Shown here: piece after piece, positions 9,617-57,022 of the stretch | Layout: the number at the start of each line of letters is the position of its first letter | Numbering within the stretch: position 1 is the stretch's first letter | Source of the DNA: Chrysomallon squamiferum | Lineage: Eukaryota > Animalia > Mollusca | DNA: 64,000 nucleotides | NCBI GenBank assembly: GCA_012295275.1 | Contig: CM022670.1 | Span: 37,138,001 to 37,202,000 of the forward strand | Reading direction: 5' to 3' | Made by a program: the position numbers and the translations under genes | The notes under the pieces: generated by a model | Database searches by the model: none | Told to the model about the DNA's origin: nothing | Seen by the model: only the letters and a program-made list of their open reading frames with translations

Positions 9617-10866
9617 ATGTCAGACGAAGACTACATTATTTTCTCCACTGAAGAATTAGAGGAGGCCAAACAATATGTCCAGCAACACGGAGTTTTACGT
9701 TTACCTGATTTTCTGAAATATAAAACCGAACAGTGGAAATATGTCAGCGTTAATATTGGTATTGTAGGAGAATCGGCTGTGGGAAAATCCTCATTCATTA
9801 ACTGTATTCGGGGATTAACAGCAGATGATCCAGATGGCGCTCCTGTTGGAACTGGTGATACAACAAGTGAACCGACGAAGTACTGTCATCCTTACAATGA
9901 AGAGCTTGTTTTTTGGGACTTACCGGGAGTAGGAACACCAAAATACCCGAGAAATGAAGAGTATCTAAAGAACATTAACTTTGAAAATATGATTTTTTCC
10001 TTCTCCTTTCTGACAACAGGTTTTCATCCAACGATGTTTGGTTAGCAAGAGAAATTGAAAAGAGAGGAAAACATTTCTTCTTTGTCCGCACAAAAATTGA
10101 CGAAGCAATGGAAAATGAATTGGAATTATGTGGAAGCACTTTTTCAGCTGCTGTCGTTCTGGATAAAATAAATAAAAATTGTGAAGAAAACTTCAAAGCA
10201 GCTCAGCTGACTAATCGACGGGTGTTTTGCATTTCCAACTATCACAGAGAGATGTGGCAGTTTGAAGAACTTATGCAAGAACTTATTGTCGCATTGCCTG
10301 ACATGAAGAGAAATGCTCTGGTGCTGTCCATTGGTCCTGTGTCAAAACAAGTATTAAAGGAAAAAACCAAATTACTTAAAACACAGATTTCTAAGAAGGC
10401 CGCCCTTTCTGCTATTGGAGCAGCTGCAGGTTCTCTGGTCCCAATACCTTTAGTGGGTGGAGCTGTTGGTGTAGCAGTGGATATTGGTATACTGGTGGGC
10501 GAGATAAATTTTTATCTCAAACAGTATGGGCTTGATGACGAGTCACTAAAACGACTATCGGAACGTACCAACACGACCGTGGACTACTACGTAAAATCAC
10601 TTAAATTTGCTTCTGAGATCATTGTGAGTAGACAGAGTATTAAAGCTTTTGTTATCAACAGGATTAAAAAGGAAACTGTGAGCCAAGGACGGAAAAGAAT
10701 TGCTTCTGAATTTCTAAAACTGATTCCTTTGGTGGGGAGCATTGCGGCAGGCGCAATATCGTTTGGAACTTGCTACTACTTTCTAGACAAAACAATCGAC
10801 GAGTTTGAGACTGACGCGCTGGCTGTTGTTGATGCCGCCATTGGAAAAACACAATCTGAAATCTGA
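9617..10866 (+). pseudogene. IRG/IIGP-family GTPase copy 1, frameshifted (or a sequencing error)
   Basis: Near-identical to the intact copies but has 4 A instead of 5 at 9984-9987 (TTTGAAAATAT vs TTTGAAAAATAT), splitting it into ORFs 9599..10045 and 10108..10866. G1 GESAVGKS, G3 WDLPG. Splice acceptor at 9596-9597. Confidence 0.85.
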
Positions 10867-16027: not shown

Positions 16028-17278
16028 ATGTCAGACCAAGACTTCACTATTTTCTCCAATGAACAATTACAGGAGGCCAAACAACAAACCCAGGAACACG
16101 GAGTTTCAGGTTTAGTTGATTATCTAAAACAAAAATCCGATGAGTGGAAATATGTCAGCGTTAATATTGGTATAGTAGGAGAATCGGCTGTGGGAAAATC
16201 CTCATTCATTAACTGTATTCGGGGATTAACAGCAGATGATCCAGGTGGCGCTCCTGTTGGAACTGGTGATACAACAAGTGAACCGACGAAGTACTGTCAT
16301 CCTTACAATGAAGAGCTTGTTTTCTGGGACTTACCGGGAGTAGGAACACCAAAATACCCGAGAAATGAAGAGTATCTAAAGAACATTAACTTTGAAAAAT
16401 ATGATTTTTTCCTTCTCCTGTCTGACAACAGGTTTTCATCCAACGATGTTTGGTTAGCAAGAGAAATTGAAAAGAGAGGAAAATATTTCTTCTTTGTCCG
16501 CACAAAAATTGACGAAGCAATGGAAAATGAACGGGAATTATGTGGAAGCACTTTTTCAGCTGCTGTCGTTGTGGATAAAATAAATAAAAATTGTGAAGAA
16601 AACTTCAAAGCAGCTCAGCTGACTAATCGACGGGTGTTTTGCATTTCCAACTATCACAGAGAGATGTGGCAGTTTGAAGAACTTATGCAAGAACTTATTG
16701 TCGCATTGCCTGACATGAAGAGAAATGCTCTGGTGCTGTCCATTGGTCCTGTGTCAAAACAAGTATTAAAGGAAAAAACCAAATTACTTAAAACACAGAT
16801 TTCCTGGAAGGCCGCCCTTTCTGCTATTGGAGCAGCTGCAGGTTCTCTGGTCCCAATACCTTTAGTGGGTGGAGCTGTTGGTGTAGCAGTGGATATTGGT
16901 ATACTGGTGGGCGAGATAAATTTTTATCTCAAACAGTATGGGCTTGACGACGAGTCACTAAAACGACTATCGGAACGTACCAACACGACCGTGGACTACT
17001 ACGTAAAATCACTTAAATTTGCTTCTGGGATCATTATGAGTAGACAGAGTATTAAAACTTTTGTTATAGACATGATTAAAAAGGAAGCTGTGAAACAAAC
17101 AGAGAAAAGAACTGCTTCTGAATTTCTTAAATTGATTCCTTTGGTGGGGAGCATTGCGGCAGGCGCAATATCGTTTGGAACTTGCTACTACTTTCTAGAC
17201 AAAACAATCGACGAGTTTGAGACTGACGCGCTGGCTGTTGTTGATGCCGCCATCCGAAAAACACAATCTGAAATCTGA
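16028..17278 (+). CDS. Immunity-related GTPase (IRG/IIGP family, GKS type), copy 2, 416 aa, single coding exon
   Basis: G1 GESAVGKSSFIN, G2 region GTGDTT, G3 WDLPGVGTP, YDFFLLLS, G4 FFVRTKID, ISN, LPDMKR and the C-terminal LIPLVGSIAAGAISFGTCYYFL segment typical of IRGs. Confidence 0.92.
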   Translation: MSDQDFTIFSNEQLQEAKQQTQEHGVSGLVDYLKQKSDEWKYVSVNIGIVGESAVGKSSFINCIRGLTADDPGGAPVGTGDTTSEPTKYCHPYNEELVFWDLPGVGTPKYPRNEEYLKNINFEKYDFFLLLSDNRFSSNDVWLAREIEKRGKYFFFVRTKIDEAMENERELCGSTFSAAVVVDKINKNCEENFKAAQLTNRRVFCISNYHREMWQFEELMQELIVALPDMKRNALVLSIGPVSKQVLKEKTKLLKTQISWKAALSAIGAAAGSLVPIPLVGGAVGVAVDIGILVGEINFYLKQYGLDDESLKRLSERTNTTVDYYVKSLKFASGIIMSRQSIKTFVIDMIKKEAVKQTEKRTASEFLKLIPLVGSIAAGAISFGTCYYFLDKTIDEFETDALAVVDAAIRKTQSEI

Positions 17279-18509: not shown

Positions 18510-20359
18510 TTAATGTAGTCGCTTTTTATTTTCCGGACCTGAATAAATAATGCTTATATATAAACATATTTCACAATTTTTTCACAGAAAAGTACATTTT
18601 GTTGGATCATTATTCACAGCTGTGCTTTTAAATAAAATTTAGAAAAAATATATTAGACACTGCTTTAAAACAACTATAACAAAACGTTCACACACAAAAC
18701 TTTATTCACTTGGTAGCAATGTTTTAAGCCGCTGAATAATGAATTAAAAGACTAAATATAAAAAATATAATAAATCCCCCAGAAAACAACTCACACCTAC
18801 ATTATATTCACTTAATATTTTCAAGTTTATCAAAGCTGATTAAAACTAATAAATGTGTCAAAATAGTTAATTGGTTCTGTTTTAATTCCACAAAATCAGT
18901 AATTGACTTTAACAGCATCAACATTTTGACAATGAAATAAAATAAATGAATGTTTATGATTTATTTTAACTACTTCTAATTATATATAAATACATTGTTT
19001 AAAAAATTTTCATTCATATCAAAATAATTTTGTTTATTTTATTTATTATGTGGAAAAGAGTAAAATAAAGAAGAATTAACAGTGAAAAAAATTAGACACA
19101 CACACAAAAAAGAGAAAATGGTTGTTTTCTTTCCAACTGTTCAGCTTTCGCAATGACTTTTTAATGAAATTCCAGGTTTTTTTTCTACACAGTTCATTAT
19201 CACAGTGCATTTATTGAATATAAACTATTACATTAAAGATTGCTGTCATGATTGTCTCAAATTATTGATTTCAGCTTCTCTTCATTGCAAATAAAAAAGG
19301 AGAACTGCCATATTGTGCTAATTGTTTTTGACAGTAAGATGTTGCTATTTTCCCCTTAACTGTATGCAGAACTAATATTTAATTGATCTTCTCTTCACAG
19401 TATACTGCACGAGTCTCTACGTTATTGTCCTTCAGAAAAATACTCGCCTTGTCTCTGAACGTCTCTGTGTGAAGATAGTGAAAAACGAGCACCTTCTTTG
19501 ATAAGTGTCTGCAGATTTTGAAAGTCATACAAATCTGGTTTTAATGAATCAACAAAGTAAACTGGTGCATCAGGAAAACTATCTTTAATCTGTTTTGTAA
19601 TTTTTCCTTTACGCTTTCTTCACTGAATGTCCTTGGATGAGCCCTTCTCTCGTTCCTCAGTTCATTAAAAAACTTAGTCCTTACATAGAAATATTTCTTT
19701 CCCTGATTAGCTATTTTTGTGCGAAGCCGAAGCTCAAACTCATCTATCTTGCTGCAGGAAAGTAGAAGATAGAAATCATAATTCTTAAAATTAATTTTCT
19801 TTATGTAATCTTCGTCATCTCTAAACATCTGAGTGGCAAATCCAGGAACATCCCACAAAACGACGTCATTGCCAGGTACATTGTAGGGCTCTGGATCTTT
19901 AGTGCACTCAATAACATCAGTTTCGGCAGCATATTCATCTTTGTGTGGAAATCCATAGAAAGCATTTATAAAAGTTGATTTTCCAGAGCCACTTTTTCCT
20001 ATGACTCCAACATTATAGAGTCTGAAAGAAAGCAAGAATTGAATAATCTGTTACAATAATTTTAACATAGAACAATAAAAGATGGAGATGAAGAATATGA
20101 ATGAATGAATGAATTAAATAAACACAAAAAGAAACGAATTATATTTTTTATATTATATACTTTTCGTTTTCAGAATTAATCGTCATAACGTTTTTACCCA
20201 GTTTCATCAATTTCTAATAATATTATATCTATATTTCATAATAATGTGAAATACAGATGAATTATTATTGTATATATATCCGAAAATTAAATGAGAAAAA
20301 CACTAAGAATATAAAAAAAAAAAAATAGACAAAAATTAAATGGTAAACATATCTTAATG

Positions 20360-25837: not shown

Positions 25838-27076
25838 ATGTCAGACCAAGACTTCACTATTTTCTCCAATGAACAATTACAGGAGGCCAAACAACAAACC
25901 CAGAAACACGGAGTTTCAGGTTTAGTTGATTATCTAAAACAAAAATCCGATGAGTGGAAATATGTCAGCGTTAATATTGGTATAGTAGGAGAATCGGCTG
26001 TGGGAAAATCCTCATTCATTAACTGTATTCGGGGATTAACAGCAGATGATCCAGGTGGCGCTGCTGTTGGAACTGGTGATACAACAAGTGAACCGACGAA
26101 GTACTGTCATCCTTACAATGAAGAGCTTGCTTTTTGGGACTTACCGGGAGTAGGAACACCAAAATACCCGAGAAATGAAGAGTATCTAAAGAACATTAAC
26201 TTTGAAAAATATGATTTTTTCCTTCTCCTGTCTGACAACAGGTTTTCATCCAACGATGTTTGGTTAGCAAGAGAAATTGAAAAGAGAGGAAAATATTTCT
26301 TCTTTGTCCGCACAAAAATTGACGAAGCAATGGAAAATGAACGGGAATTATGTGGAAGCACTTTCTCAGAGGCTGTCGTTCTGGATAAAATAAATAAAAA
26401 TTGTGAAGAAAACTTCAAAGCAGCTCAACTGACTAATCGACGGGTGTTTTGCATTTCCAACTATCACAGAGAGATGTGGCAGTTTGAAGAACTTATGCAA
26501 GAACTTCTTGTCGCATTGCCTGACATGAAGAGAAATGCTCTGGTGCTGTCCATTGGTCCTGTGTCAAAACAAGTATTAAAGGAAAAAACCAAATTACTTA
26601 AAACACAGATTTCCTGGAAGGCCGCCCTTTCTGCTATTGGAGCAGCTGCAGGTTATCTGGTCCCAATACCTGCTGTTGGTGTAGCAGTGGATATTGGTAT
26701 ACTGGTGGGCGAGATAAATTTTTATCTCAAACAGTATGGGCTTGACGACGAGTCACTAAAACGACTATCGGAACGTACCAACACGACCGTGGACTACTAC
26801 GTAAAATCACTTAAATTTGCTTCTGGGATCATTATGAGTAGACAGAGTATTAAAACTTTTGTTATAGACATGATTAAAAAGGAAGCTGTGAAACAAGCAG
26901 AGAAAAGAGTTGCTTCTGAATTTCTTAAATTGATTCCTTTGGTGGGGAGCATTGCGTCAGGCTCAATATCGTTTGGAACTTGCTACTACTTTCTAGACAA
27001 AACAATCGACGAGTTTGAGACTGACGCGCTGGCTGTTGTTGATGCCGCCATCCGAAAAACACAATTTGAAATCTGA
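25838..27076 (+). CDS. IRG/IIGP-family GTPase copy 3, 412 aa (lacks LVGG)
   Basis: Intact ORF with all G motifs. The true start is MSDQD at 25838 after acceptor TTTGTAG; 12-nt in-frame deletion in the hydrophobic PIPLVGGAVGV segment. Confidence 0.92.
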   Translation: MSDQDFTIFSNEQLQEAKQQTQKHGVSGLVDYLKQKSDEWKYVSVNIGIVGESAVGKSSFINCIRGLTADDPGGAAVGTGDTTSEPTKYCHPYNEELAFWDLPGVGTPKYPRNEEYLKNINFEKYDFFLLLSDNRFSSNDVWLAREIEKRGKYFFFVRTKIDEAMENERELCGSTFSEAVVLDKINKNCEENFKAAQLTNRRVFCISNYHREMWQFEELMQELLVALPDMKRNALVLSIGPVSKQVLKEKTKLLKTQISWKAALSAIGAAAGYLVPIPAVGVAVDIGILVGEINFYLKQYGLDDESLKRLSERTNTTVDYYVKSLKFASGIIMSRQSIKTFVIDMIKKEAVKQAEKRVASEFLKLIPLVGSIASGSISFGTCYYFLDKTIDEFETDALAVVDAAIRKTQFEI

Positions 27077-28798: not shown

Positions 28799-30638
28799 TT
28801 AATGTAGTCGCTTTTTATTTTTCGGACCTGAATAAATAATGCTTATATATAAACATATTTCACAATTTTTTCACACAAAAGTACATTTTGTTGGATCATT
28901 ATTCACAGCTGTGCTTCTAAATGAAATTTAGAAAAAAATATATTACACACTGCTTTAAAACAATTATAACAAAACGTTCACACACAAAACTTTATTCACT
29001 TGGTAGCTATGTTTTAAGCCGCTGAATAATGAATTAAAAGACTAAATATAAAAAATATAAAAAATCGCCCAGAAAACAACAACTCAGACCTACATTATAT
29101 TCACTTAATATTTTCAAGTTCATCAAAGCTGATTAAAACTAATAAATATGTCAAAATAGTTAATTGGTTGTGTTTTAATTCCACAAAATCACTATTTACC
29201 TTTAACAGCTTCAACATTTTGACAATGAAATAAAATAAATGAATATTTATGATTTATTTTAACTACCTGTAATTATATATAAATACATTGTTTAAAAAAA
29301 TTTCATTCATATCCAAATAATTTTGTTTATTTTATTTATTATGTGGAAAAGAGTAAAATAAAGAAGAATTAACAGTGAAAAAAATTAGACACACACAAAA
29401 AAGAGAAAATGATTGTTTTCTTTCCAAATGTTCAGCTTTCGCAATGACATTTTAATGAAATTCCAGTTTTTTTTCTACACAGTTCATTATCACATTTATT
29501 GAATATAAACTATTACATTAAAGATTACTGTCATGATTGTCTCAAATTATTGATTTCAGCTTCTCTTCGTTGCAAATAAAAAAGGAGAACTGCCATATTG
29601 TGCTAATTGTTTTTGACAGTAAGATGTTGCTATTTTCCCCTGAACTGTATGCAGAAATAATATTTAACTGATCTTCTCTTCACTGTATACTGCACCAGTC
29701 TCTACGTTTTTGTCATTGAGAAAAATACTCGCCTTGTCTCTGAACGTCTCTGTGTGAAGATACTGAGAAACGAGCACCTTCTTTGGTAAGTATTGGCAGA
29801 TTTGGAAAGTCATACTTTTCTGCTTTTAATGAATCAACAAAGTAAACTGGTGCATCAGGAAAACTCTCTTGAATCTGTTTTGTAATTTTGTCCTTTACGC
29901 TTTTTTCACTGAATGTCCTCGGATGAGCCCTTTCCTCGTTCCTCAGTTCATTAAAAAACTTTGTCCTTACATAGAAATATCTCTTTCCCTGCTTAGCTAT
30001 TTCATTGTGAAGCAGAACCTCAAACTCATTTATCTTGCTGCAGGAAAGTAGAAGATAGAAATCATAATTCTTAAAATTAATTTTCTTTATGTAACCTTCG
30101 TCATCTCTAAACCTCTGAGTGGCAAATCCAGGAACATCCCACAAAACGACGTCAATGCCAGGTACACTGTAGGGCTCTGGATCTTTAGTGCACTCAATAA
30201 CATCAGTTTTGGCAGCATATTCATCTTTGTGTGGAAATCCAAAGAAAGCATTTATAAAAGTTGATTTTCCAGAGCCACTTTTTCCTATGACTCCAACATT
30301 ATAGAGTCTGAAAGAAAGCAAGAATTGAATAATCTGTTACAATAATTTTAACATACAGCAATAAAAGATGGAGATGAAGAATATGAATGAATGAATGAAT
30401 AAATAAACACACAAAGAAACGAATTATATTTTTTATATTCTATACTTTTCGTTTTCAGAATTAATCGTCATAACGTTTTTACCCAGTTTCATCAATTTCT
30501 AATAATATTATATCTATATTTCATAATAATGTGAAATACAGATCAATTATTACTGTATATATTATATCCGAAAATTAAATGAGAAAAACACTAAGAATAT
30601 AAAAAAAAAATAGACAAAAATTAAATGGTAAACATATC

Positions 30639-30679
<41 letters not shown>

Positions 30680-31084
30680 TTTTCAGAAGGGACTTTTGGG
30701 GAGGAAATAATGGAATTGTTTATAGAAAGTGTTACTTCACAAATAACTTTTCTTGGAAACACTTCCACAATTCCGCCATTAACTGAATCAGTTAAAATTC
30801 ATTTGAAACTTCATTTAATAATAAGTGAATAAAATATTAAATGGAGTTTCAGTTGAACTATATATAACTTTTGTAAGTGTAAGTGTTATTCCTTTTTACT
30901 TCCTCCTATACTACTGACAATTTCGAAAAATGAATGTTACGATATACACTGGCATAGGCAGAAACAATGGCATAATTATAGCTCCAAGTTATTTTCTTTA
31001 CAAACAAAAACTCGTAATATAATACCAAAACTGTCTTCTAGTTTACCTTTCCTTTTCGAATGTTCGTCTTGCAGCTTCAGCCAT
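28799..31084 (-). CDS. Mini-IRG copy B, intact, 198 aa G-domain-only IRG-like GTPase. Exons 31084-31047, 30307-29778, 28827-28799
   Basis: Exon lengths 38+530+29 = 597 nt, phases match: MAEAARRTFEKE|R-LYNVGVIGKSGSGKSTFINAF...VIECT...LWDVPG...YDFYLLLS...YFYVRTKFF...YDFPNLPILTKE|GPKNKKRLH*. The second donor (AG|GTGCTC) is weak. Confidence 0.78.
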
Positions 31085-34512: not shown

Positions 34513-35763
34513 ATGTCAGACCAAGACTACACTATTTTCTCCACTGAAGAATTAGAGGAGGCCAAACAATATGCCCAACAATACGGAGTTTATGGTTTAG
34601 CTGATTATCTAAAAAATAAAACCGAAGAGTGGAAACAAGTCAGCGTTAATATTGGTATTGTAGGAGAATCGGCTGTGGGAAAATCCTCATTCATTAACTG
34701 TATTCGGGGATTAACAGCAGATGATCCAGATGGCGCTGCTGTTGGAACTGGTGATACAACAAGTGAACCGACGAAGTACTGTCATCCTTACAATGAAGAG
34801 CTTGTTTTCTGGGACTTACCGGGAGTAGGAACACCAAAATACCCGAGAAATGAAGAGTATCTAAAGAACATTAACTTTGAAAAATATGATTTTTTCCTCC
34901 TCCTGTCTGACAACAGGTTTTCATCCAACGATGTTTGGTTAGCAAGAGAAATTGAAAAGAGAGGAAAACATTTCTTCTTTGTCCGCACAAAAATTGACGA
35001 AGCAATGGAAAATGAACGGGAATTATGTGGAAGCACTTTTTCAGCTGCTGTCGTTCTGGATAAAATAAATAAAAATTGTGAAGAAAACTTCAAAGCAGCT
35101 CAGCTGACTAATCGACGGGTGTTTTGCATTTCCAACTATCACAGAGAGATGTGGCAGTTTGAAGAACTTATGCAAGAACTTATTGTCGCATTGCCTGACA
35201 TGAAGAGAAATGCTCTGGTGCTGTCCATTGGTCCTGTGTCAAAACAAGTATTAAAGGAAAAAACCAAATTACTTAAAACACAGATTTCTAAGAAGGCCGC
35301 CCTTTCTGCTATTGGTGCAGCTGCAGGTTCTCTGGTCCCAATACCTTTAGTGGGTGGAGCAGTTGGTGTGGCAGTGGATATTTGTATACTGGTGCGCGAG
35401 ATAGATTCTTATCTCAAACAGTATGGGCTTGACGACGAGTCACTAAAACGACTATCGGAACGTACCAACACGACCGTGGACTACTACGTAAAATCACTTA
35501 AATTTGCTTCTGGGATCATTATGAGTAGACAGAGTATTAAAACTTTTGTTATCAACATGATTAAAAGGGAAGGTGTGAAACAAGTAGAGAAAAGAGTTGC
35601 TTCTGAATTTCTTAAATTGATTCCTTTGGTGGGGAGCATTGCGTCAGGCGCAATATCGTTTGGAACTTGCTACTACTTTCTAGACAAAACAATCAACAAG
35701 TTTGAGACTGACGCGCTGGCTGTTGTTGATGCCGTCATCCGAAAAACACAATCTGAAATCTGA
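34513..35763 (+). CDS. IRG/IIGP-family GTPase copy 4, 416 aa
   Basis: Intact ORF, all G motifs present, acceptor TTTGCAG upstream. Confidence 0.92.
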   Translation: MSDQDYTIFSTEELEEAKQYAQQYGVYGLADYLKNKTEEWKQVSVNIGIVGESAVGKSSFINCIRGLTADDPDGAAVGTGDTTSEPTKYCHPYNEELVFWDLPGVGTPKYPRNEEYLKNINFEKYDFFLLLSDNRFSSNDVWLAREIEKRGKHFFFVRTKIDEAMENERELCGSTFSAAVVLDKINKNCEENFKAAQLTNRRVFCISNYHREMWQFEELMQELIVALPDMKRNALVLSIGPVSKQVLKEKTKLLKTQISKKAALSAIGAAAGSLVPIPLVGGAVGVAVDICILVREIDSYLKQYGLDDESLKRLSERTNTTVDYYVKSLKFASGIIMSRQSIKTFVINMIKREGVKQVEKRVASEFLKLIPLVGSIASGAISFGTCYYFLDKTINKFETDALAVVDAVIRKTQSEI

Positions 35764-36986: not shown

Positions 36987-39892
36987 TTAATGTGGTCGCT
37001 TTTTATTTTCCGGACCTGAATAAATAATGATTATATATAAACATATTTCACAGTATTTTCACACAAAAGTACATTTTGTTGGATCATTATTCACAGCTGT
37101 GCTTTTAGATAAAATTTAGAAAAAATATATTACACACTGCTTTAACACAAATATAACAAAACGTTCACACAAAAAACTTTATTCACTTGGTAGCAATATT
37201 TTAAGCGGCTGAATAATGAATTAAATGACTGAATATAAAAAATATAAAATATCCCCCAGAAAACAACAACTAACACCTATATTATATTCACTTAATATTT
37301 TCGAGTTTATCAAAGCTGATTAAAACTAATAAATGTGTTAAAATAGTTAATTGGTTGTGTGTTAATTCCTCCAAATTACTATTTACATTTAACAGCTTCA
37401 ACATTTTGACAATGAAATAAAATAAATGAATATTTATGATTTATTTTAACTACTTTTAATTATATATAAATACACTGTTTAAAAAATTTCATTCATATCA
37501 AAATAATTTTGTTTATTTTATAAATTATGCGGAAAAAAGAAAAATAAAGAAGTATTCACATAGCGAAAAAAATATTACACACACAGAAAAAGAGAAAATG
37601 GTTATTTGCTTTCCACATTTTCAGCTTTCGCAAAGACATTTTAAACAAATTCCAATTTTGTTTTCTATACAATTAATTATCACAGTGCATTTACTGAATA
37701 TAAACTATTACGTTTAATAATACTTCATGATTGTCTCAAATTATTGTTTTCAGCTTCTCTTCATTGCAAATAAAAAAGTAAACCTGCCTTATTGTACTAA
37801 TTGTTTTTGACAGTAAGATGTTTTTTTTTTTTCGTTTTTTCTGAACTGTATGCAGAAATAATATTTAACTGATCTTCTCTTCACTGTATACTGCACGATT
37901 CTGTACGTTCTTCTCCTTCAGAAAAATACTCGCCTTGTCTCTGAACGTCTCTGTGTGAAGATAGTGAAAAAGGGGCGGGTTTTGAAAGTCATACAAATCT
38001 GGTTTTAATGAATCAACAAAGTAAATTGGTGCTTCAGGAAAACTATCTTTAATCTGTTTTGTAATTTTGTCCTTTACGCTTTCTTCACTGAATGTCCTTG
38101 GATGAGCCCTTCTCTCGTTCCTCAGTTCATTAAAAAACTTAGTCCTTACATAGAAATATCTCTTTCCCTGCTTAGCTATTTCATTGTGAAGCAGAACCAC
38201 AAACTGATCTATCTTGCTGCAGGAAAGTAGAAGATAGAAATCATAATTCTTAAAATTAATTTTCTTTATGTAATCTTCGTCATCTCTAAACGTCTCAGTG
38301 GCAAATCCAGGAACATCCCACAAAACGACGTCATTGCCAGGTACATTGTAGGGCTCTGGATCTTTAGTGCACTCAATAACATCAGTTTCGGCAGCATATT
38401 CATCTTTGTGTGGAAATCCAAAGAAAGCATTTATAAAAGTTGATTTCCAGAGCCACTTTTTCCTATGACTCCAACAGTATAGAGTCTGAAAGAAAGCAAG
38501 AATTGAATATTGTTAACATACAACAATAAAAGATGGAGATGAAGAATATGAATGAATGAATGAATGAAAGAAGAAACAAACAAACAAATGAATTATATTT
38601 TTATATTTATACTTTTTGTTTTCAGAATTAATTGTCATAACGTTTTTACCCAGTTTCAAATTTCTAATAATAGTTGATTATATTTCATTAAATGAAAACA
38701 GATGAAATGTTATAAAATATATATCCAAAATTAAATGAGAAACAGACTATGAATATAAAGAATAGACAAAAATTAAATGGTAAAGATATCTTAATAATAA
38801 TAATAATAATAATAATAATATAAAAACTGTTCACAAGGGACTTTGGGAGAGGAAATAATGGAATTGTTTCTTGGAAACACTTCCGCAATTCTGCCATTTA
38901 CTAAATCATATAAATTTCATTTGAAATTTCATTTAAAATTTCATTTAATAGTAAGTGAGTTAATTATTAAATAAAGTTTCAGTTGAACTATATAGAACTT
39001 TTATAAGTACAGTGGTATATCGAGTTACGAGTGGTCCAACTTACGAGATTTTACTTTGAGTTGCGAGCCAAAATCTCAGTTACAAGCGAGCTTCAGATAT
39101 GCCGCAACGAACAACACATCATCCGCCCAGCATCCCGCGTCTCATTCGTTTGCTTCAAGTGGTTACCTCGCCATGGAAGCATCTTTTTGTCTTGTGCTCA
39201 CGTTTTGTGCAGTATTTTGGCACATTTCTATGGATCCTAAGAAAGTGAGGGCAAAGGATGGTGCTAAGAAGAGGAAGCGGATGATGTTCATTGAATTAAA
39301 GCATGAAATCAAAGAAAAGCATGAGCGAGGTGTGCGTGTAGTGAACATGGCTAGGCAGTATCAATGTAGTACTTTTACGATATATGTTATACTGAAGCAG
39401 GAGGAATCGATAAAGACTGTAAGTCCAGCCAAAGGCGTTAAAATAAGATCTAACCTGCGGTGCTCTGTCCTTTAAAAGATGGAGAAACCCTAACCTTGTA
39501 CAGTTTACAAAACTAATTTATTTCTTTACATTCTTTCGTTCTTATACAATATTTGTCATTTATACATACATTTTACTTATTTAAAAATACGGTACAAAAT
39601 ATTGGGGTGGTTTTGGGGTCTAGAATGGATTAATGTTATTTCATTTAATTTTAGTTGGTAAAATCAATTTGATATACGACCATATTGAGTTACGAGCTCG
39701 GTCACGGAAGAGTTAAACTCGTAATTCAAGTTTTATTCCTTTTTATTTCCTCCTATACTTCTCACAGTTTCAAAATAGTAATGTTACGATATACAATGGC
39801 ATAATTAAAGCTATAAGCAAAAACTCATAATATTAAAACTGTCTTTTAGTTTACCTTTCCTTTTCAACTGTTCGCCGGGCAGCTGCAGCCAT
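36987..39892 (-). pseudogene. Mini-IRG copy C, disrupted. Exons 39892-39855, 38485-~37970, 37015-36987
   Basis: 1-nt deletion within the G1 GKS codons (GATTTCC vs GATTTTCC at ~38443) and a deletion/replacement at ~37970 that removes the exon 2 donor; Tigger insertion in intron 1. Confidence 0.8.
39008..39730 (+). mobile_element. Internally deleted Tigger/pogo (Tc1-mariner superfamily) element in mini-IRG C intron 1
   Basis: TA followed by CAGTGGTATATCGAGTTACGAG terminus, partial right terminus AAACTCGTAATTCAAG. Encodes a CENP-B-type HTH N-terminus (MDPKKVRAKDGAKKRKRMMFIELKHEIKEKHERGVRVVNMARQY...IKTVSPAKGVKI). Absent from the homologous site in copies A, B and the orphan. Confidence 0.85.
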
Positions 39893-44899: not shown

Positions 44900-46135
44900 A
44901 TGTCAGACGAAGACTACATTATGTTTTCCACCGAAGAATTAGAGGAGGCCAAACAATATACCCAGGAACACGGAGTTTCAGGTATAGCTAAATATGTAAA
45001 ATATAAAACCGAACAGTGGAAATATGTCAGCGTTAATATTGGTATAGTAGGAGAATCGGCTGTGGGAAAATCCTCATTCATTAACTGTATTCGGGGATTA
45101 ACAGCAGATGATCCAGATGGAGCTCCTGTTGGAACTGGTGATACAACAAGTGAACCGACGAAGTACTGTCATCCTTACAATGAAAAGCTTGTTTTTGGGG
45201 ACTTACCGGGAGTAGGAACACCAAAATACCCGAGAAATGAAGAGTATCTAAAGAACATTAACTTTGACCAATATGATGTTTTCCTTCTCATGTCTGACAA
45301 TAGGTTTTCAACCAACGATGTTTGGTTAGGAAGAGAAATTGAAAAGAGAGGAAAACATTTCTTCTTTGTCCGCACAAAAATTGACGAAGCGATGGAAAAT
45401 GAATTGGAATTATGTGGTAGCACTTTTTCAGCTGCTGTCGTTCTGGATAAAATAAATAAAAATTGTGAAGAAAACTTCAACGCAGCTCAACTGACTAATC
45501 GACGGGTGTTTTGCATTTCCAACTATCACAGAGAGATGTGGCAGTTTGAAGAACTTATGCAAGAACTTATTGTCGCTTTGCCTGACATGAAGAGAAATGC
45601 TCTGGTGCTGTCCATTGGTCCTGTGTCAAAACAAGTATTAAAGGAAAAAACCAAATTACTTAAAAAGCAGATTTCCTGGAAGGCCGCCCTTTTTGCTGTT
45701 GGTGTAGCTGCAGGTTCTCTGGTCCCAATACCTTTAGTGGGTGGAGCAGTTGGTGTAGCGGTGGAAATTGGTATACTGGTGGCCGAGATAGATTTTTATC
45801 TCAAACAGTATGGGCTTGACGACGAGTCACTAAAACGACTATCGGAACCTACCAAAACGACCGTGGACTACTACGTAAAATCACTTAAATTTATGAGTTT
45901 ACATAGTATTAAAACTTTTGTTATTAACATGATTAAAACGGAAGGTGTGAAACAAGCACAGAAAAGAGTTGCTTCTGAATTTCTTAAATTGATTCCTTTG
46001 GTGGGGAGCATTGCGGCAGGCGCAATATCGTTTGGAACTTGCTACTACTTTCTAGACAAAACAATCGACGAGTTTGAGACTGATGCGCTGGCTGTTGTTG
46101 ATGCCGTCATCCGAAAAACACAATCTGAAATCTGA
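44900..46135 (+). CDS. IRG/IIGP-family GTPase copy 5, 411 aa, most divergent
   Basis: Intact ORF. VFGDLPG (W to G before G3), 5-aa deletion (ASGII) and several private substitutions. Confidence 0.9.
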   Translation: MSDEDYIMFSTEELEEAKQYTQEHGVSGIAKYVKYKTEQWKYVSVNIGIVGESAVGKSSFINCIRGLTADDPDGAPVGTGDTTSEPTKYCHPYNEKLVFGDLPGVGTPKYPRNEEYLKNINFDQYDVFLLMSDNRFSTNDVWLGREIEKRGKHFFFVRTKIDEAMENELELCGSTFSAAVVLDKINKNCEENFNAAQLTNRRVFCISNYHREMWQFEELMQELIVALPDMKRNALVLSIGPVSKQVLKEKTKLLKKQISWKAALFAVGVAAGSLVPIPLVGGAVGVAVEIGILVAEIDFYLKQYGLDDESLKRLSEPTKTTVDYYVKSLKFMSLHSIKTFVINMIKTEGVKQAQKRVASEFLKLIPLVGSIAAGAISFGTCYYFLDKTIDEFETDALAVVDAVIRKTQSEI

Positions 46136-47849: not shown

Positions 47850-50766
47850 TTAATGTAGTCTCTTTTTATTTTTCGAACCTGAATAAATAATGCTTATATA
47901 TAAACATATTTCACAATTTTTCACACAAAAGTACATTTTGTTGGATCATTATTCACAGCTGTGCTTTTAAATAAAATTTAGAAAAAATATATTAGACACT
48001 GCTTTAACACAATTATAACAAAACGTTCACACACAAAACTTTATTCACTTGGTAGCAATATTTTAAGCCGCTGAATAATGAATTAAAAGACTGAATATAA
48101 AAAATATAAAAAATCCCCCAGAAAACAACAACTAACACCTACATTATATTCACTTAATATTTTCAAGTTTATCAAAGCTGATTAAAACTAATAAATGTGT
48201 CAAAATAGTTAATTGGTTGTGTGTTAATTCCTCAAAATCACTATTTAGCTTTAACAGCTTCAACATTTTGACAATGAAATAAAATAAATGAATGTTTATG
48301 ATTTATTTTAACTACTTCTAATTATATATAAATACATTGTTTAAAAAAATTTCATTCATATCAAAATAATTTTGTTTATTTTATTTATTATGTGGAAAAG
48401 AGTAAAATAAAGAAGAATTAACAGTGAAAAAAATTAGACACACACAAAAAAAGAAAATGGTTGTTTTCTTTCCAACTGTTCAGCTTTCGCAATGACATTT
48501 TAATGAAATTCCAGTTTTTTTTCTACACAGTTCATTATCACAGTGCATTTATTGAATATAAACTATTACATTAAAGATTACTGTCATGATTGTCTCAAAT
48601 TATTGATTTCAGCTTCTCTTCATTGCAAATAAAAAAGGAGAACTGCCATATTGTGCTAATTGTTTTTGACAGTAAGATGTTGCTATTTTCCCCTGAACTG
48701 TATGCAGAAATAACATTTAACTGATCTTCTCTTCACTGTATACTGCACGAGTCTCCACGTTTTTGTCCTTCAGAAAAATATTCGCCTTGTCTCTGAACGT
48801 CTCTGTGTGAAGATAGTGAAAAACGAGCACCTTCTTTGATAAGTATTGGCAGATTTTGAAAGTCATACAAATCTGGTTTTAATGAATCAACAAAGTAAAC
48901 TGGTGCATCAGGAAAACTCTCTTTAATCTGTTTTGTAATTTTGTCCTTTACGCTTTCTTCACTGAATGTCCTTGGATGAGCCCTTTTCTCGTTCCTCAGT
49001 TCATTAAAAAACTTAGTCCTTACATAGAAATATCTCTTTCCCTGCTTAGCTATTTCATTGTGAAGCAGAACCTCAAACTCATCTATCTTGCTGCAGGAAA
49101 GTAGAAGATAGAAATCATAATTCTTAAAATTAATTTTCTTTATGTAATCTTCGTCATCTCTAAACCTCTGAGTGGCAAATCCAGGAACATCCCACAAAAC
49201 GACGTCATTGCCAGGTACATTGTAGGGCTCTGGATCTTTAGTGCACTCAATAACATCAGTTTTGGCAGCATATTGATCTTTGTGTGGAAATCCAAAGAAA
49301 GAATTTATAAAAGTTGATTTTCCAGAGCCACTTTTTCCTATGACTCCAACATTATAGAGTCTGAAAGAAAGCAAGAATTGAATAATGTTAACATACAACA
49401 ATAAAAGATGGAGATGAAGAATATGAATGAATGAATGAATGAATGAATGAATGAATGAACAAACGAATGAATTATATTTTCTATATGTATACTTTTTGTT
49501 TTCAGAATTAATTGTCATAACGTTTTTACCCAGTTTCATCAATTTCTAATAATATTTGATCTATATTTCATAATAATATGAAATACAGATGAAATGTTAT
49601 TGTATATATATCCGAAAATTAAATGAGAAACAGACTATGAATATAAAGAATAGACAAAAATTAAATGGTAAACATATCTTAATAATAATAATAATAATAA
49701 TAATAATATAAAAACTGTTCACAAGGGACTTTGGGAGAGGAAATAATGGAATTGTTTCTTGGAAACACTTCCGCAATTCTGCCATTTACTAAATCATATA
49801 AATTTCATTTGAAATTTCATTTAATAGTAAGTGAGTTAATTATTAAATAAAGTTTCAGTTAAACTATATAGAACTTTTGTAAGTACAGAGGTATCTCGAG
49901 ATACGAGTGGTCCAACTTACGAGATTTTACTTTGAGTTGCGAGCCAAAATCTGAGTTACAAGCGAGCTTCAGATATGCCGCAACGAACAACACATCATCC
50001 GCCCAGCATCCCGCGTCTCATTCGTTTGCTTCAAGTGGTTACCTCGCCATGGAAGCATCTTTGTCTTGTGCTCACGTTTTGTGCAGTATTTTGGCACATT
50101 TCTATGGATCCTAAGAAAGTGAGGGCAAAGGATGGTGCTAAGAAGAGGAAGCGGATGATGTTCATTGAATTAAAGCATGAAATCAAAGAAAAGCATGAGC
50201 GAGGTGTGCGTGTAGTGAACATGGCTAGGCAGTATCAATGTAGTACTTTTACGATATATGTTATACTGAAGCAGGAGGAATCGATAAAGACTGTAAGTCC
50301 AGCCAAAGGCGTTAAAATAAGATCTAACCTGCGGTGCTCTGTCCTTTAAAAGATGGAGAAACCCTAACCGTGTACAGTTTACAAAACTAATTTATTTCTT
50401 TACATTCTTTCGTTCTTATACAATATTTGTCATTTATACATACATTTTACTTATTTAAAAATACGGTACAAAATATTGGGGTGGTTTTGGGGTCTAGAAC
50501 GGATTAATGTTATTTCAATTAATTTTAGCTGGTAAAATCAATTTGATATACGACCATATTGAGTTATGAGCTCGGTCACGGAAGAGTTAAACTCGTAATT
50601 CAAGTTTTATTCCTTTTTATTTCCTCCTATACTTCTAACAGTTTCAAAATAGTAATGTTACGATATACAATGGCATAATTATAGCTATAAGCAAAAATTC
50701 ATAATATTAAAACTGTCTTTTAGTTTACCTTTCCTTTTCAACTGTTCGCCGGGCAGCTGCAGCCAT
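47850..50766 (-). CDS. Mini-IRG copy D, intact, 198 aa. Exons 50766-50729, 49360-48831, 47878-47850
   Basis: 38+530+29 nt in frame: MAAAARRTVEKE|R-LYNVGVIGKSGSGKS...WDVPG...RTKFF...YDFQNLPILIKE|GSKNKKRLH*. Confidence 0.78.
49884..50604 (+). mobile_element. Tigger/pogo remnant in mini-IRG D intron 1 (duplicate of 39008-39730)
   Basis: TA-CAGAGGTATCTCGAGATACGAG terminus, same HTH fragment and same insertion site. Confidence 0.85.
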
Positions 50767-51819: not shown

Positions 51820-52396
51820 TCAGCATGGAACACCGGGTTCTTCACCAGTTGCCTTTCTGCTGATGTTTCTGGCATGAGATTCTAGCATACTTTTAATCAT
51901 CTTCTGTTCCTCTGTCAGTTCAGGTGTCTTTTTCTTATGCTTCTTCCTGTATGATTCTACCCAGTTGTTTGGAGGATTACTAACATTTCGAAGGAACGAT
52001 TTTAACTCGTTTTCCACAAACTTCTGCGACACTTTTTGGTCGAGTGATAGATGAGAACTGTGAATGTCCACCGAAGCCGTTGCAAGTGTCACACCTGCCT
52101 CCGCCAGAAACATTCCAGTCAGTGGAAAGTGCAGAGATTCTATTGGCATTCGGAAAAGTTTTGCTGTCGTTTCTATGCCGGTAATAATGGCCTAGAATAA
52201 AATAAAATAAAAAAGATAAATCGTATTGAAACGATTAAAGAACACCAAATAATATTCTGTCACGACATTAGTAAATGAAAAGTTTGGAAATATATCCTTT
52301 CCGTTTTCTAAAGAATCATAACACTAACAAAACAAAATAATGAAAAGAAAACAACAAAAATAAAGCAAACCCTACAACAACAACAACAACAACAAC

Positions 52397-52434
<38 letters not shown>

Positions 52435-55400
52435 TAATAATAAATAATAATAATAATAATAAACAGATAAAAAGAAAGAAAAACCGAAATATTTACAAAA
52501 TCTGATATAATTTTTTTTTTTTTAAATACAATGGAAAAAACATATAAAATATATAAAAAGAACCGATATTAAACAATTTTGAATGAATAAAAACTTCTGT
52601 TGGACAATATTAAGTACTTACACTAACGGTCTCTCGAAGGTCTTCAGGCACTGGGATTTCATTATGAAAACAGTTCAAAACTTTCGGGCCGAGCCACAGT
52701 GATGCTGCGGAGAGAACAAGTTTGATGTTAACTTGTGCCATAGACTCCGTAATACTGAACAGTGTTTGCCATCTGAAATAAGAAAGAAAGAAATGAAATA
52801 AAATTTTAAAAAAATGAAATAAATTAAATTAAATTAAAAAAAAATAAAAATAAACAAATAACGGAATATCTTTCCGCATTAGTTATAAAAATACTCGACA
52901 TATTCAAAGAACAGTCAGATAAAATAAATACCTTGAGATTTTCGCTTCTGCAGCCTTGACATCGGCAGTAGAACGCGTGGTCTCGTTAGCCATCTGACTC
53001 ATAATATTTTGATCATCATGTTCTCCAGATGACTGCATCTTCAAAAGCTTAGAAACAAGCAGCAGAGCATCATAACAGTGTTTTCTTGATGTCCAGTTTT
53101 TAGCGAAATCCAGACTGTAAAAGCCTTCATCGATTCTGGAGAATGTCTCCAGGGAGTCTGGCATGGTGGATGTGACTGAAATAACATGTTCCAGCAATAA
53201 TTCTACAAGCTCTGGCTTTTGTGACAGATCCTCTTCTTTCCATCCGGTCATTTCTTTTGCAGATGCATAAAAAGCGAATCCTGCTATTGCAATCGGCCAA
53301 AGACAGGCAAGAAACTTTCCAGTTTTGTGATTTGTTATGTATTCTTTACTCCACCGACTTAGACCATCGCTGATTCGTTGCCAAAAACTTCCTTTTGTTT
53401 CTTTCCAGATATTAACAATCTGTGACAGGACAAGCTCAGCTTCCACCATGAATAATTTCAGTGTGATGTCTGGTCGCTTCTCAGATGTCACACCTAATTC
53501 ATCCATACTCTCAGTCAATAAGGGTTTCAAACGTTCAATCAGAATCTGACCGAGAAACCCTTTGTTGTTAATGATTTGTGACGTCAAGCATTTCACAGAA
53601 TAACAGACAAACGAGTACATACTTTTTCTGTCTGCTTCTGATCCTGTGTAAAAGTCACTCATCAAATAGATCTGCCTGGCTATGAGATTTCTGCAGAAGT
53701 CGACAGCGTAGTTACTGCCGGGGTCGAGTATTTCGAACAGCATTACACTTTTCTGTAGAACAGACATACTTGAAGACATCGACATGGAGAGTGCGAGAGG
53801 TTGAATACTGTTTAATGCAATAAAGTAATCAAACAGAAGCTTGGCCCAGTCTTTGGCGTTGGTTTTGTTAACGTATTTCTGAAGCTGTGGAGAAAGACTG
53901 GTAAAAGCACGGATAGAACTAGCGTATGTCAGCATTGAGAAATCTTTTAACTGTGACAGGCTTTCTTTTGCATTACCATTCCAAAAGTACAGCAGCTTAT
54001 TTCTGCTTTCCTCGTCCAATATTTTGTTTCCAAGATCTTTGTTCCAGAGTATATGTAAGCCGATAAAAGCAGTACCAAATACATGTTCTAGGAAATAGTG
54101 CTTCTGATCGTCTTCAACTTTTTGGTCTGCATTAATTCCAAATATCTGCTCTCTCCATTCAGCTGAGACGGAAGCCATCATTGCTTCTTTGGTGAACTCG
54201 AAACTGCGAGTCAGCAACACTTCTGATGCTGGGACGATCACCATCGACAAATCCTGTAAACTAACGTAATTAGACGATACTGAATCTGCAAACTGAAGCA
54301 ATTTACTAGGCACTGATCTTTTACTTATGGCCAAAGCTGATCTTGACAAAAGAGGGTGAGATTTGACATTAGCTAAGGCGTATTCACGTACTTTGTTTAC
54401 TTTCGTGTTATAATCTTCGCTTCTTTTCGCAATTCCCATAAATAAAAGCGCTTCTCCTTTATTACCAGGTTTAGTTGCATCAAAGGGTATAACTTCGCCT
54501 TCGAATGACCGGTAATTACATGTCAGTGTTCCAGATATTCGCGTGTATCCGACAATCGGTTGATATTCTGCCGGAAAAAGCACATGGAAATTCAGCTGAT
54601 TTTTATGATCAATTTCAAACACCACATTGCCAAGCAGATCTGCTGAAGAAAATGTATGTTCTGGTGTGTGCAGTGAAAAAATTACTTTATTTTTTTCGTC
54701 ATCTGTTTCCTCTCTACCGAGTTCAATTGTTCCAAAATTCTGTATGGACTGGCCTATTTGTTTAATAGTATCATCGATATGGAGTTCTTTTAACGTAACA
54801 GTTGTTTTCTGACAGACAAATTCCATTGGCTGATTAATAAAAGTAAAACATTCAGATGAAATTTCAGTAGTGGTTGTGTCTTCTGCAGACATCTCTTTTC
54901 TTTGACATATTATTTTCCCATAGCCAGACAGTCGATCGGGATCAAAACAGAGTGTACCAAGTTCTGTAATCCCATCAGAAAATTCTTCCGTCCACACCAT
55001 CTGGTCATGGGAAATTCTCTTGGTTGACGTAATATGACTGTCATTAAGAAAAATATTTCCACGGACAATGCTCAGTTTTTGGTATTTGTTTTTTTTACTG
55101 AGGATATTCCCAGTGTGAATGATCCTGGCGTTGAGAACAGTAACTTCTTCTAGTGGAACGCAGCCGTCTGGATAAGCTGACAGCGGTTTGGGAACATTAG
55201 ATATTTTGCCTGACGAAAGATTAGTAGGGAATTCGTCTTCATTGAACAGGTTTTCTTGCTTCAGCAATGGCTCCATTAGTCTTTTAAAAGTAGATTTAGA
55301 TTCTTTGCGAAAGTGACTTGGCAGATTGGCAAGTCGACTATTGGTTATTTCAGGGTAGTTCAGATGAACGAGATAACCGTTAGCGTGACAAGATCTTGGA

Positions 55401-57022
55401 CCTTCTCTGATATGAATTCCGTAAACCTTGGTACCTGGTTCTATTACGGCTTTGGAAAACGAGTTAATTTCCACCCATTCGTATTCCACTTTTCTGGTTT
55501 CGATGTTGTGTGCGACGACCTTACAGACGCGATCGTATTCTGATAACTGTCCAACTTTCAGCCAGTTATTTTCTTCTTTTGCAGTGACAGGGTCAATGGC
55601 TCTCCATCCGTCCTGTGTCCAAAACGGATGATCAGCTGTGAAAAACGCAGCTCCATCATTAATTCCGTATACGAAAGTTTGACTTTCTACAGCGTACACA
55701 AGTTTCTCGTGAGAAATGAGTCCCGGTTCCCCGGCATCTCCCAGGATAACGTCATTTTCTTGCAGATTTTCCACAGCTAAACTGTCCCCTAATTCCATCA
55801 GTATCGAGGTATTGCCCAAAAGGCAGCCGCCAGTGTGAAGTTTGGGCACATACTCCATCAGACCTACGGATCTGACACGATATGCTGATGGACCGTCTTT
55901 TCTGTTAAGCCACCCTAAAAAAGAACTGACGTGACCGACAATTCTAGGCCCTGCTTTGCTGCTCTTCGTCGCTTTGCTGGCTGATTCTAACAGGAATCCA
56001 GTTTTCAAAATACCACAGGCTGGAAGAAGGAAATTTTTCTTTTCAACGAATTCACTAATTGTGTTTAAATTAACTTGGCCATCACATTTTTCCTTGATTT
56101 TTCCGATTGTGCAATGATATGTATCGATATTCAACACAAAAAGAATAAGGAACTTTAATAACATTTTCTCATTAAAAGATGATGAGTTAGACAGATAATT
56201 AGATATTTCGGAGGCCCATTCCTCTTTGTTATTGCTCAGAAACAATTTGAGTTTGGATTTCTCCGTTAACCAATATCTGAAAATGGCTCTAGATATTTGA
56301 TATCCTTTTTCTCCTGCAATAATAGAAGTCCATGACTCTTCAGCTTTTTTAATATTCACAGCATTTTGCAATTCTGAAATCTGAAAACATGAAAAAAATA
56401 TGAACAATCTATAAATATAAGCAAGTGCATTTATATTTTGACTAGTTCAGTGTCGTTTGTTCTGAGAAATAACACGTTAAAGTTTTCAATATGTAAATTT
56501 TTTTTAGAGATTAAGATATTTTCCATGTTTTAGAGATAAAAAAAGACATACACAGAAGACAATCTAACGATTAGAATTGTTTTAGTTTTGATTTATTAGC
56601 GACAATAAACGCCAACACTTTTTTCTTCTGAATTTATATATATATAATAAAAAGAAATTAAAAAGAAAGAAAGAAAACTATTATATATAAAATTAAAATG
56701 AAGTTTGTGCATAATTATTGTTAATTGTTTCTTGGTGGGACTATTGTAGAATTATATTAAAACTGTCTTATGTATAAATAGCTATATTTACCTGTCCCAG
56801 ATTCCAAGCCATCAATGGAACAGCAATATCGGACACTGTTTTAATTTCGTCTTCATCCAACAACTTGGAAGAGTCAAAGAATGCTAAATTGTGAAAAAAA
56901 ACTTTCGATATATCAGCGACTGCAGCTGATTTTACAATGTTAATGAATATATCGACAATTTCTGTTTCTGGAAACTCCAAGTCATCCAGCAACCCAATAA
57001 ATATCTCAGCATCTATTGTCAT
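51820..57022 (-). CDS. Large (~1400 aa) uncharacterised protein with an internal Hint (intein-like) autoprocessing domain. Exons 57022-56792, 56380-52932, 52772-52622, 52191-51820
   Basis: Exons of 231+3449+151+372 = 4203 nt join in frame at canonical GT-AG sites (phases 0, 2, 0) with no stops. Contains Hint motifs and C-terminal hydrophobic segments. The start exon is less certain (a donor-like CAG|GTAAAA lies ~19 nt upstream of the ATG). Confidence 0.85.
55358..55825 (-). other. Hint domain coding segment (156 aa; residues ~263-418)
   Basis: Block A GG|CLLGNTSILMELG...VENLQENDVIL, block B FFTADHPFWTQDGW (TxxH), block F KVYGIHI...HANGYLV, terminal HLN|Y. Confidence 0.85.

Follow-up and report, generated by a model that had tools for sequence, protein, structure and literature searches.

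A likely exchange of the specificity aspartate between G4 and G5 in a short, CaaX-ending IRG-type G-domain protein of Chrysomallon squamiferum

The aspartate of the G4 motif is the textbook determinant of guanine specificity in GTPases, and its loss is often read as the sign of a dead or ATP-using enzyme. Among IRG proteins, the best solved relatives of the short protein described here are the mouse GKS-type members Irga6/IIGP1, Irgb10 and Tgtp2 (PF05049; E 6e-31 to 4e-28 over the G domain). The G4 aspartate of Irga6, Asp186, sets guanine specificity (PMC3042988). Hydrolysis by Irga6 needs Glu106, Thr102 and Thr108 (PMC3042988), and the residues of its catalytic interface have been described (PMC3042988; PMC5084822). 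GMS-type proteins are defined by Met in place of Lys in G1 (PMC1297648).

The window, which is the whole 64,000-nucleotide stretch of C. squamiferum DNA analysed here, is AT-rich and holds IRG genes in a tandem array. The five on the plus strand are long, the four on the minus strand are short, and in four units a short and a long gene converge as a pair. The genes of the array are listed below by position in the window.

9617..10866, plus strand: long IRG copy 1, its frame interrupted where one base is deleted from an A run
16028..17278, plus strand: long IRG copy 2, 416 aa, with RTKID in G4 and SNY in G5; convergent with short copy A
19395..20021, minus strand: short copy A, exon 2, with a 1-base deletion near 19604 that shifts the frame between G4 and G5; 172 aa
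20789..20826, minus strand: short copy A, exon 1, present upstream as in all four copies
25838..27076, plus strand: long IRG copy 3, 412 aa; convergent with short copy B
29713..30307, minus strand: short copy B, exon 2, which holds the site of the earlier note; G domain in frame
31047..31084, minus strand: short copy B, exon 1, present upstream as in all four copies
34513..35763, plus strand: long IRG copy 4, 416 aa; convergent with short copy C
37881..38485, minus strand: short copy C, exon 2, with a 1-base deletion in G1 near 38446 and a 22-base deletion near 37973
39855..39892, minus strand: short copy C, exon 1, present upstream as in all four copies
44900..46135, plus strand: long IRG copy 5, 411 aa; convergent with short copy D
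48733..49360, minus strand: short copy D, exon 2, encoding an IRG-type G domain, one further helix, a short tail, the CaaX box and the stop
50729..50766, minus strand: short copy D, exon 1, 12 codons plus 2 bases, with a GT donor

Several further features of the window were recorded. At 45197, the Trp that precedes G3 is changed to Gly in long copy 5; the Trp base is seen in contigs from all four runs, and these contigs may derive from other long IRG copies. A 1086-aa open frame on the minus strand (52904-56164) has no Pfam match at E 0.01 and gives weak Hint-domain leads in the Atlas search (0.75-0.77); it may include a 109-aa frame located on that strand at 51820-52149. Pairing of short and long genes is also seen in the rotifer Adineta vaga, where a 250-aa IRG (P0048) and a 432-aa IRG (P0161) have adjoining locus tags (I4U23_030084/030085), and there are hints of linkage between short and long IRG relatives in Haliotis asinina and Liolophura sinensis.

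The earlier note, made from the letters of this stretch, had claimed that RTKFF stands in place of RTKID in the G4 motif of every short copy. Inspection of the minus strand confirms this, with YFYVRTKFFNEL found at the site concerned, the change present in 4/4 short copies (in copy B, RTK starts at 29967, minus strand) and RTKID retained in 5/5 long copies. HMMER aligns RTKFF to the RTKVD of Irga6 without gaps, and Phe131 of copy D is thus the equivalent of Irga6 Asp186. Other parts of that account stood less completely. The D-to-F change is indeed shared by copies A-D, but these are 96.2-97.1% identical in pairwise comparison (aligned bases of exon 2), so that the loss of Asp represents one event, not four. 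The use of the four copies as independent evidence for this loss was rejected, as they are recent duplicates. The long IRG, used as comparator, does carry RTKID; it is, however, a distant paralogue (34% identity), and the fair comparison is therefore with the short relatives in other molluscs. G1 and G3 had been described as canonical, which holds for G3 (DVPG, in frame in 4/4) but not for G1 of copy C, broken by its 1-base deletion; GxxxxGKS in G1 and DxxG in G3 occur together in copies A, B and D. A second change, absent from the earlier note, is an Asp at the first G5 position of the short proteins. The codons concerned, and the end of copy D, lie as follows, where the Irga6 number Ser231 was counted back from Phe240 in the alignment.

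19669-19667, minus strand: copy A, Phe codon TTT at the G4 Asp position
29833..29835, minus strand: copy B, Asp codon at the first G5 position
29953..29955, minus strand: copy B, Phe codon TTT at the G4 Asp position, the site of the earlier note
38134-38132, minus strand: copy C, Phe codon TTT at the G4 Asp position
48733..48747, minus strand: copy D, CaaX box (CSIQ) and stop codon, a predicted prenylation site
48886..48888, minus strand: copy D, codon of Asp171 at the first G5 position (Irga6 Ser231), the proposed replacement of the G4 Asp
49006..49008, minus strand: copy D, Phe131, codon TTT at the G4 Asp position (Irga6 Asp186)

The feature formed by RTKFF and the G5 Asp is real, conserved and expressed. 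With respect to expression, RNA matching the stretch came from two runs of one study among the 11 runs listed. One contig, of run X8, stops at the acceptor, and its nine loose letters are those of the end of exon 1 and not of the intron; splicing of copy D is thus seen in RNA. Three RNA contigs differ from copy D by 2, 3 and 7 letters, whereas the other copies differ from D by 10 to 55, which makes the transcript D-like over the 40 of 317 rows listed, with the G4 codons lying outside these rows. The summed contig depth over exon D is ~3-4x that of a nearby unique stretch, where a depth sum is not to be equated with a copy number.

Each short copy has a 38-base exon 1 placed ~0.7 to 1.4 kb upstream of exon 2. 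Copy D is the sole whole short copy, with a spliced product of 221 aa that ends in CSIQ. In copy B, a premature stop (29715-29713) falls 11 residues short of the end, leaving 210 aa and no CaaX box. The spliced product of copy C is 30 aa long as a result of the frameshift in G1, and this copy is likely a pseudogene. Assembly errors may account for the lesions seen in copies A, B and C and in long copy 1, or these may be real; among the 12 listed of 49 gap rows of the read contigs, none corresponds to the lesions of copy C. A repeat of high copy number that contains a short open frame sits in the introns of copies C and D (39173-39475 and 49975-50349, plus strand); its contig depth far exceeds the rest in both DNA runs, and it is likely a transposon remnant.

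In the first 138 exon 2 codons, most differences between short copies change amino acids, as in the comparison of A with D (13.5 amino-acid-changing versus 0.5 silent differences). Values of pN/pS range from 1.0 to 6.8 in five of the six pairs, and the sixth pair has no silent change. No purifying selection was seen among the four local copies in these six pN/pS comparisons. The pattern suggests relaxed or diversifying selection on copies A-D; counts are small, with 0 to 2.5 silent changes per pair.

Comparison with other molluscs places the feature beyond this array. Among named relatives of the short protein, one from the gastropod Gigantopelta aegis comes closest (69% identity), ahead of abalone and chiton proteins, and the short build defines a subfamily of 222-230 aa proteins that includes Gigantopelta, abalone and chiton members and forms a 15-row clade with support 97. 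The earlier note had proposed a check of TKFF conservation in relatives, in which a private decay mutation would be absent from them. The G4 motif reads TKFY in Gigantopelta P0001 and TKFF in P0002, so the change is not a private decay; abalone and chiton proteins have TKID, TKLD or AKID. The G5 motif is YFVDSL in the three lineages without a G4 Asp and FLVSC, FLVNC or FLVNAK in the others. Two further members of the short clade have a G5 Asp: P0248, which holds both Asps and ends in the CaaX box CSLM, and P0263, with Ala at G4. These possibly represent a second origin of the G5 Asp within the short subfamily.

Most of the short relatives end in a CaaX box (CIIQ, CVIQ, CVLQ, CSMM, CSIL, CSLQ) and two in a basic tail. 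A Cys at position -4 is present in 9/29 proteins of up to 260 aa versus 7/173 longer proteins. Given the CSIQ terminus, copy D would be prenylated and attached to membrane.

To address whether the two changes belong together across the family, three sets of domains were assembled. The first comprised 91 matches, 79 of them kept after removal of 12 fragments or non-IRG rows, with a G5 Asp in 7/8 domains lacking the G4 Asp versus 1/71 domains having it. With the addition of a second set (the best 120 of 873 matches, from a query seeded with 6/14 rows having a G5 Asp), 214 domains comprise 140 canonical ones, 63 that carry both changes, 9 that hold both Asps and 2 in which the G4 loss stands alone. 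The third set consisted of 50%-identity representatives (the best 150 of 3259 matches; both columns present in 197/200 domains) and contains 21 domains with both changes, 7 with G4 loss only, 18 with both Asps and 151 canonical; G5 Asp accompanies 21/28 domains without the G4 Asp versus 18/169 with it. In the pooled set (both columns in 389/395 domains), G4 is Asp in 276/285 domains without a G5 Asp, the remainder being N (4), E (3), H (1) and Y (1). That is to say, loss of the G4 Asp without a G5 Asp is uncommon among the database domains (9/285). Where the G5 Asp is present, G4 is Asp in 26/104 domains and otherwise G (38), H (10), Q (7), E (7), A (5), N (3), F (3), R (2), Y (2) or S (1), with one clade of ~56 rows being the source of most Gly cases. 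A G4 residue other than D, E or N coincides with a G5 Asp in 68/70 cases. Aromatic residues occupy G4 in six database domains, five of which have a G5 Asp, including tardigrade and clam proteins on other branches.

By mutual information, the G4/G5 pair of columns ranks 2 of 15,062 at 80% and 62% weighting and 9 of 14,721 at 50% weighting. A tree was built from 377/401 rows with the motif columns removed, leaving out 18 rows with a degenerate P-loop and 6 gapped rows. On this tree, 18/23 inferred G4 Asp losses fall on G5-Asp branches that make up 15.7% of the length at risk, the remaining five are conservative (D to E in three, D to N in two), and 8/10 origins of the G5 Asp contain a G4 loss; the tree is weak, with 154/373 inner branches under 80, and the branch-loss test treats losses as independent. 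Independent-pairs tests did not reach significance on any of three trees; one of these tests gave 4.7 pairs the same way, 0 opposite and 5.3 without difference (median p 0.0625) and, in the other direction, 4.0 the same way, 0 opposite and 9.9 without difference (median p 0.125). Covariation of this kind is a sign of mutual dependence between the G4 and G5 sites, as read from the alignments, and does not identify the bound base. An acid two places after G4 (Glu133 in copy D) is D or E in 59/65 domains with both changes, and Glu133 is another candidate for a base-reading acid.

The remainder of the G domain retains the features of a working enzyme. Copy D matches Pfam PF05049 (IIGP) at 126.8 bits (cut-off 24, E 1.5e-36) over profile positions 41-209 of 375, and its AlphaFold model has a confident G domain (pLDDT 88.5). 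In a fold search with this model, every top match was a P-loop GTPase fold (best Z 17.5, rmsd 2.4, 155 aligned), with no IRG structure listed among the best 50 rows; the Atlas search gave generic IIGP clusters only. Equivalents of Irga6 Gly79, Thr102, Glu106, Thr108 and Asn191 are retained in copy D, where the switch I residues Thr102/Glu106/Thr108 correspond to Thr47/Glu51/Thr53. Across the family, motif retention in domains with both changes (GK[ST] 65/65, DxxG 64/65, Glu106 equivalent 57/65) is no worse than in canonical domains (141/144, 135/144 and 108/144, respectively).

On its motifs and build, the protein is placed with the IRG-type G-domain proteins, in a short CaaX subfamily, and not with the p47 effectors, IRGM or IRGQ. 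GKS-type p47 effectors have [T/S]KxD in G4 and a ~410 aa build with N- and C-terminal helical domains, against TKFF in 4/4 copies and 221 aa in copy D. The Met of the GMS type is replaced by the Lys of GKS, and only G4 and G5 are changed here, where IRGQ has nucleotide-binding motifs radically modified or missing. The C-terminal CaaX box is present in copy D as CSIQ.

In Ras, the G5 Ser normally adjoins the G4 Asp. A G5-to-G4 hydrogen bond has been described in FeoB, where G4 and G5 act jointly on the base (PMC11406355), and 61 of 298 guanine complexes surveyed, not all of them of G-domain proteins, use an Asp or Glu outside NKxD (PMC11594714). We favour the explanation that the G5 Asp reads guanine in place of the G4 Asp, which would make the short IRG an active, predicted prenylated GTPase, and that RTKFF is probably one instance of a recurrent exchange of the specificity Asp from G4 to G5 in active IRG-type GTPases. 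The G5 Asp may have been gained first, beside an existing G4 Asp, and its carboxylate could make the same contact to the base, with a bond to N1/N2 of guanine. G4 would thereby have been released and, in this mollusc lineage, have drifted to Tyr or Phe, while specificity for GTP would be retained through Asp171. The CaaX box may provide a membrane anchor that replaces the absent helical domains, and head-to-head dimers may form, either between two molecules of the protein or between it and the long IRG encoded next to it.

Inspection of the long IRGs reveals Ala at the position of Irga6 Gly79 and Asp at that of Glu106 (GESAVGKS, GTGDTT), a state common to P0121 and abalone P0197; among 389 domains, Gly occupies the first position in 360 and Glu the second in 311. 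The E106D exchange did not activate hydrolysis in Irga6 (PMC3042988), and the long IRG may be a catalytically muted partner, as its residues suggest. A heterodimer of the short and long G domains, predicted with GTP and Mg included, scored 0.88 versus 0.54 for the best control, against a mark reached by 51/78 solved pairs and 2/108 mismatched pairs. Contacts agree by at least 98% between runs, partner pLDDT is at least 89, and the predicted interface takes in switch I, the P-loop and the helix that follows G4. The interaction of short and long IRGs proposed in the earlier note gains from a predicted dimer that surpasses its controls; IRG G-domain dimers have, however, already been solved and close cousins pass the dimer test in 10/12 cases, so that a pass conveys likeness and not actual binding.

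Loss of the G4 Asp could instead mean that the F131/D171 pair loosens or changes base specificity, leaving the enzyme active as an NTPase on ATP, alone or alongside GTP. A hydrogen bond from the adenine amino group could likewise be accepted by an Asp near the base, and the intact catalytic residues of the short IRG fit any active NTPase. The dependence of Irga6 on its G4 Asp for guanine specificity (PMC3042988) points the same way, as do the EHD proteins of the dynamin superfamily, which use ATP after G4 changes (PMC5084822), and Vibrio FeoB, in which ATP use becomes possible when a residue of G5 draws the G4 Asp aside (PMC11406355). Were specificity simply dropped, however, drift of G4 without a fixed new residue would be expected, whereas radical changes at G4 occur almost exclusively with Asp at one G5 position and both Asps coexist in 26 domains; we regard a loosened or changed base specificity as rather unlikely, but as the main alternative. 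Decay of the array is a different matter. Three of the four short copies are broken or truncated and their differences mostly change amino acids, as neutral decay in a dying tandem array would have it. The same pair of changes nevertheless occurs in two relatives of only 63-69% identity, and the pair thus predates the array, while copy D is whole, spliced and matched by RNA contigs within a few letters. This reading is largely refuted, and we consider it very improbable.

One of the two readings offered in the earlier note makes the protein a pseudo-GTPase or decoy, which would bind the long IRG and keep it from oligomerising. The convergent pairing of short and long genes in four units and the predicted heterodimer would suit such a role, regulatory IRGM and quasi-GTPase IRGQ proteins are known (PMC1297648), and at the Irga6 interface positions Glu77 and Gly103 the short IRG has Lys and Asp. 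The departures at two catalytic positions nonetheless belong to the long IRG, with G1, G3 and the Glu106 equivalent intact in the short one; the dimer conveys likeness, and binding of short to long IRG would also fit an active GTPase. Because GKS, DxxG and the Thr102/Glu106/Thr108 equivalents are kept and the loss of Asp is paired with a new G5 Asp, a pseudo-GTPase is unlikely, and we hold this reading to be an improbable one. Returning to the exchange of Asp between loops, a broader version can be put forward as a tentative and rather speculative proposal: in invertebrate IRGs the guanine-reading Asp may have changed loops, from G4 to G5, on some ten occasions by way of a both-Asp state, and the present gene may be a case within a mollusc subfamily so far undescribed, whose prenylated, G-domain-only IRGs would act as membrane-anchored, catalytically complete partners of a neighbouring, catalytically altered long IRG.

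Approximately one fifth of the sampled IRG domains (78/389, in a partly enriched sample) lack the G4 Asp and have the G5 Asp, which cautions against calling pseudo-GTPases from G4 alone. The natural variants, including the intermediates with both Asps, form a ready set for testing how a specificity residue moves between loops. A search of mostly open-access literature for mollusc or invertebrate IRGs with these G4 or CaaX features found no description of the short subfamily or of a short CaaX-bearing build, and IRG function in such animals is unstudied within the literature searched; related cases could stand in supplementary alignments, such as those of PMC1297648. A search of the same literature for a G5-acid precedent in IFT22 or Toc33/34 found no paper stating one, and the accessible excerpt of PMC8640212 held nothing on a G5 acid.

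Like the mouse GKS-type IRGs, the short protein has G1, the switch I Thr/Glu/Thr, G3 and the Asn after G4. Unlike them, it lacks N- and C-terminal helical domains and ends in a CaaX box, and it differs from Irga6 in having Phe for Asp186, Asp for Ser231, Lys for Glu77 and Asp for Gly103. Human IRGM is likewise a G domain cut at both ends (PMC1297648), but the short protein has GKS and not GMS in G1, its change lies in G4 and G5, and it possesses a CaaX box and relatives of the same build across molluscs. With IRGQ proteins, which have been proposed as regulators (PMC1297648), it shares the status of an IRG relative with modified nucleotide-binding motifs; human IRGQ is without conserved GTP-binding motifs, whereas G1, switch I and G3 of the short protein are canonical. 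The Toc33 chain 2j3e is a structural neighbour of copy D (Z 14.8, rmsd 3.0, 172 aligned), as are many GTPases. Toc33/Toc34 and IFT22 would be direct precedents: they are not known to have a G4 Asp and would read guanine through an acidic residue of the G5 loop, a state that would be fixed in them. These belong to other families, and in IRGs the state appears to have arisen repeatedly, with both-Asp intermediates. EHD ATPases and NTP-promiscuous FeoB are GTPase folds in which base specificity is altered via G4 and G5 (PMC5084822; PMC11406355). In contrast to EHD and FeoB, which keep and divert the G4 Asp, the short IRG loses it and gains an Asp in G5.
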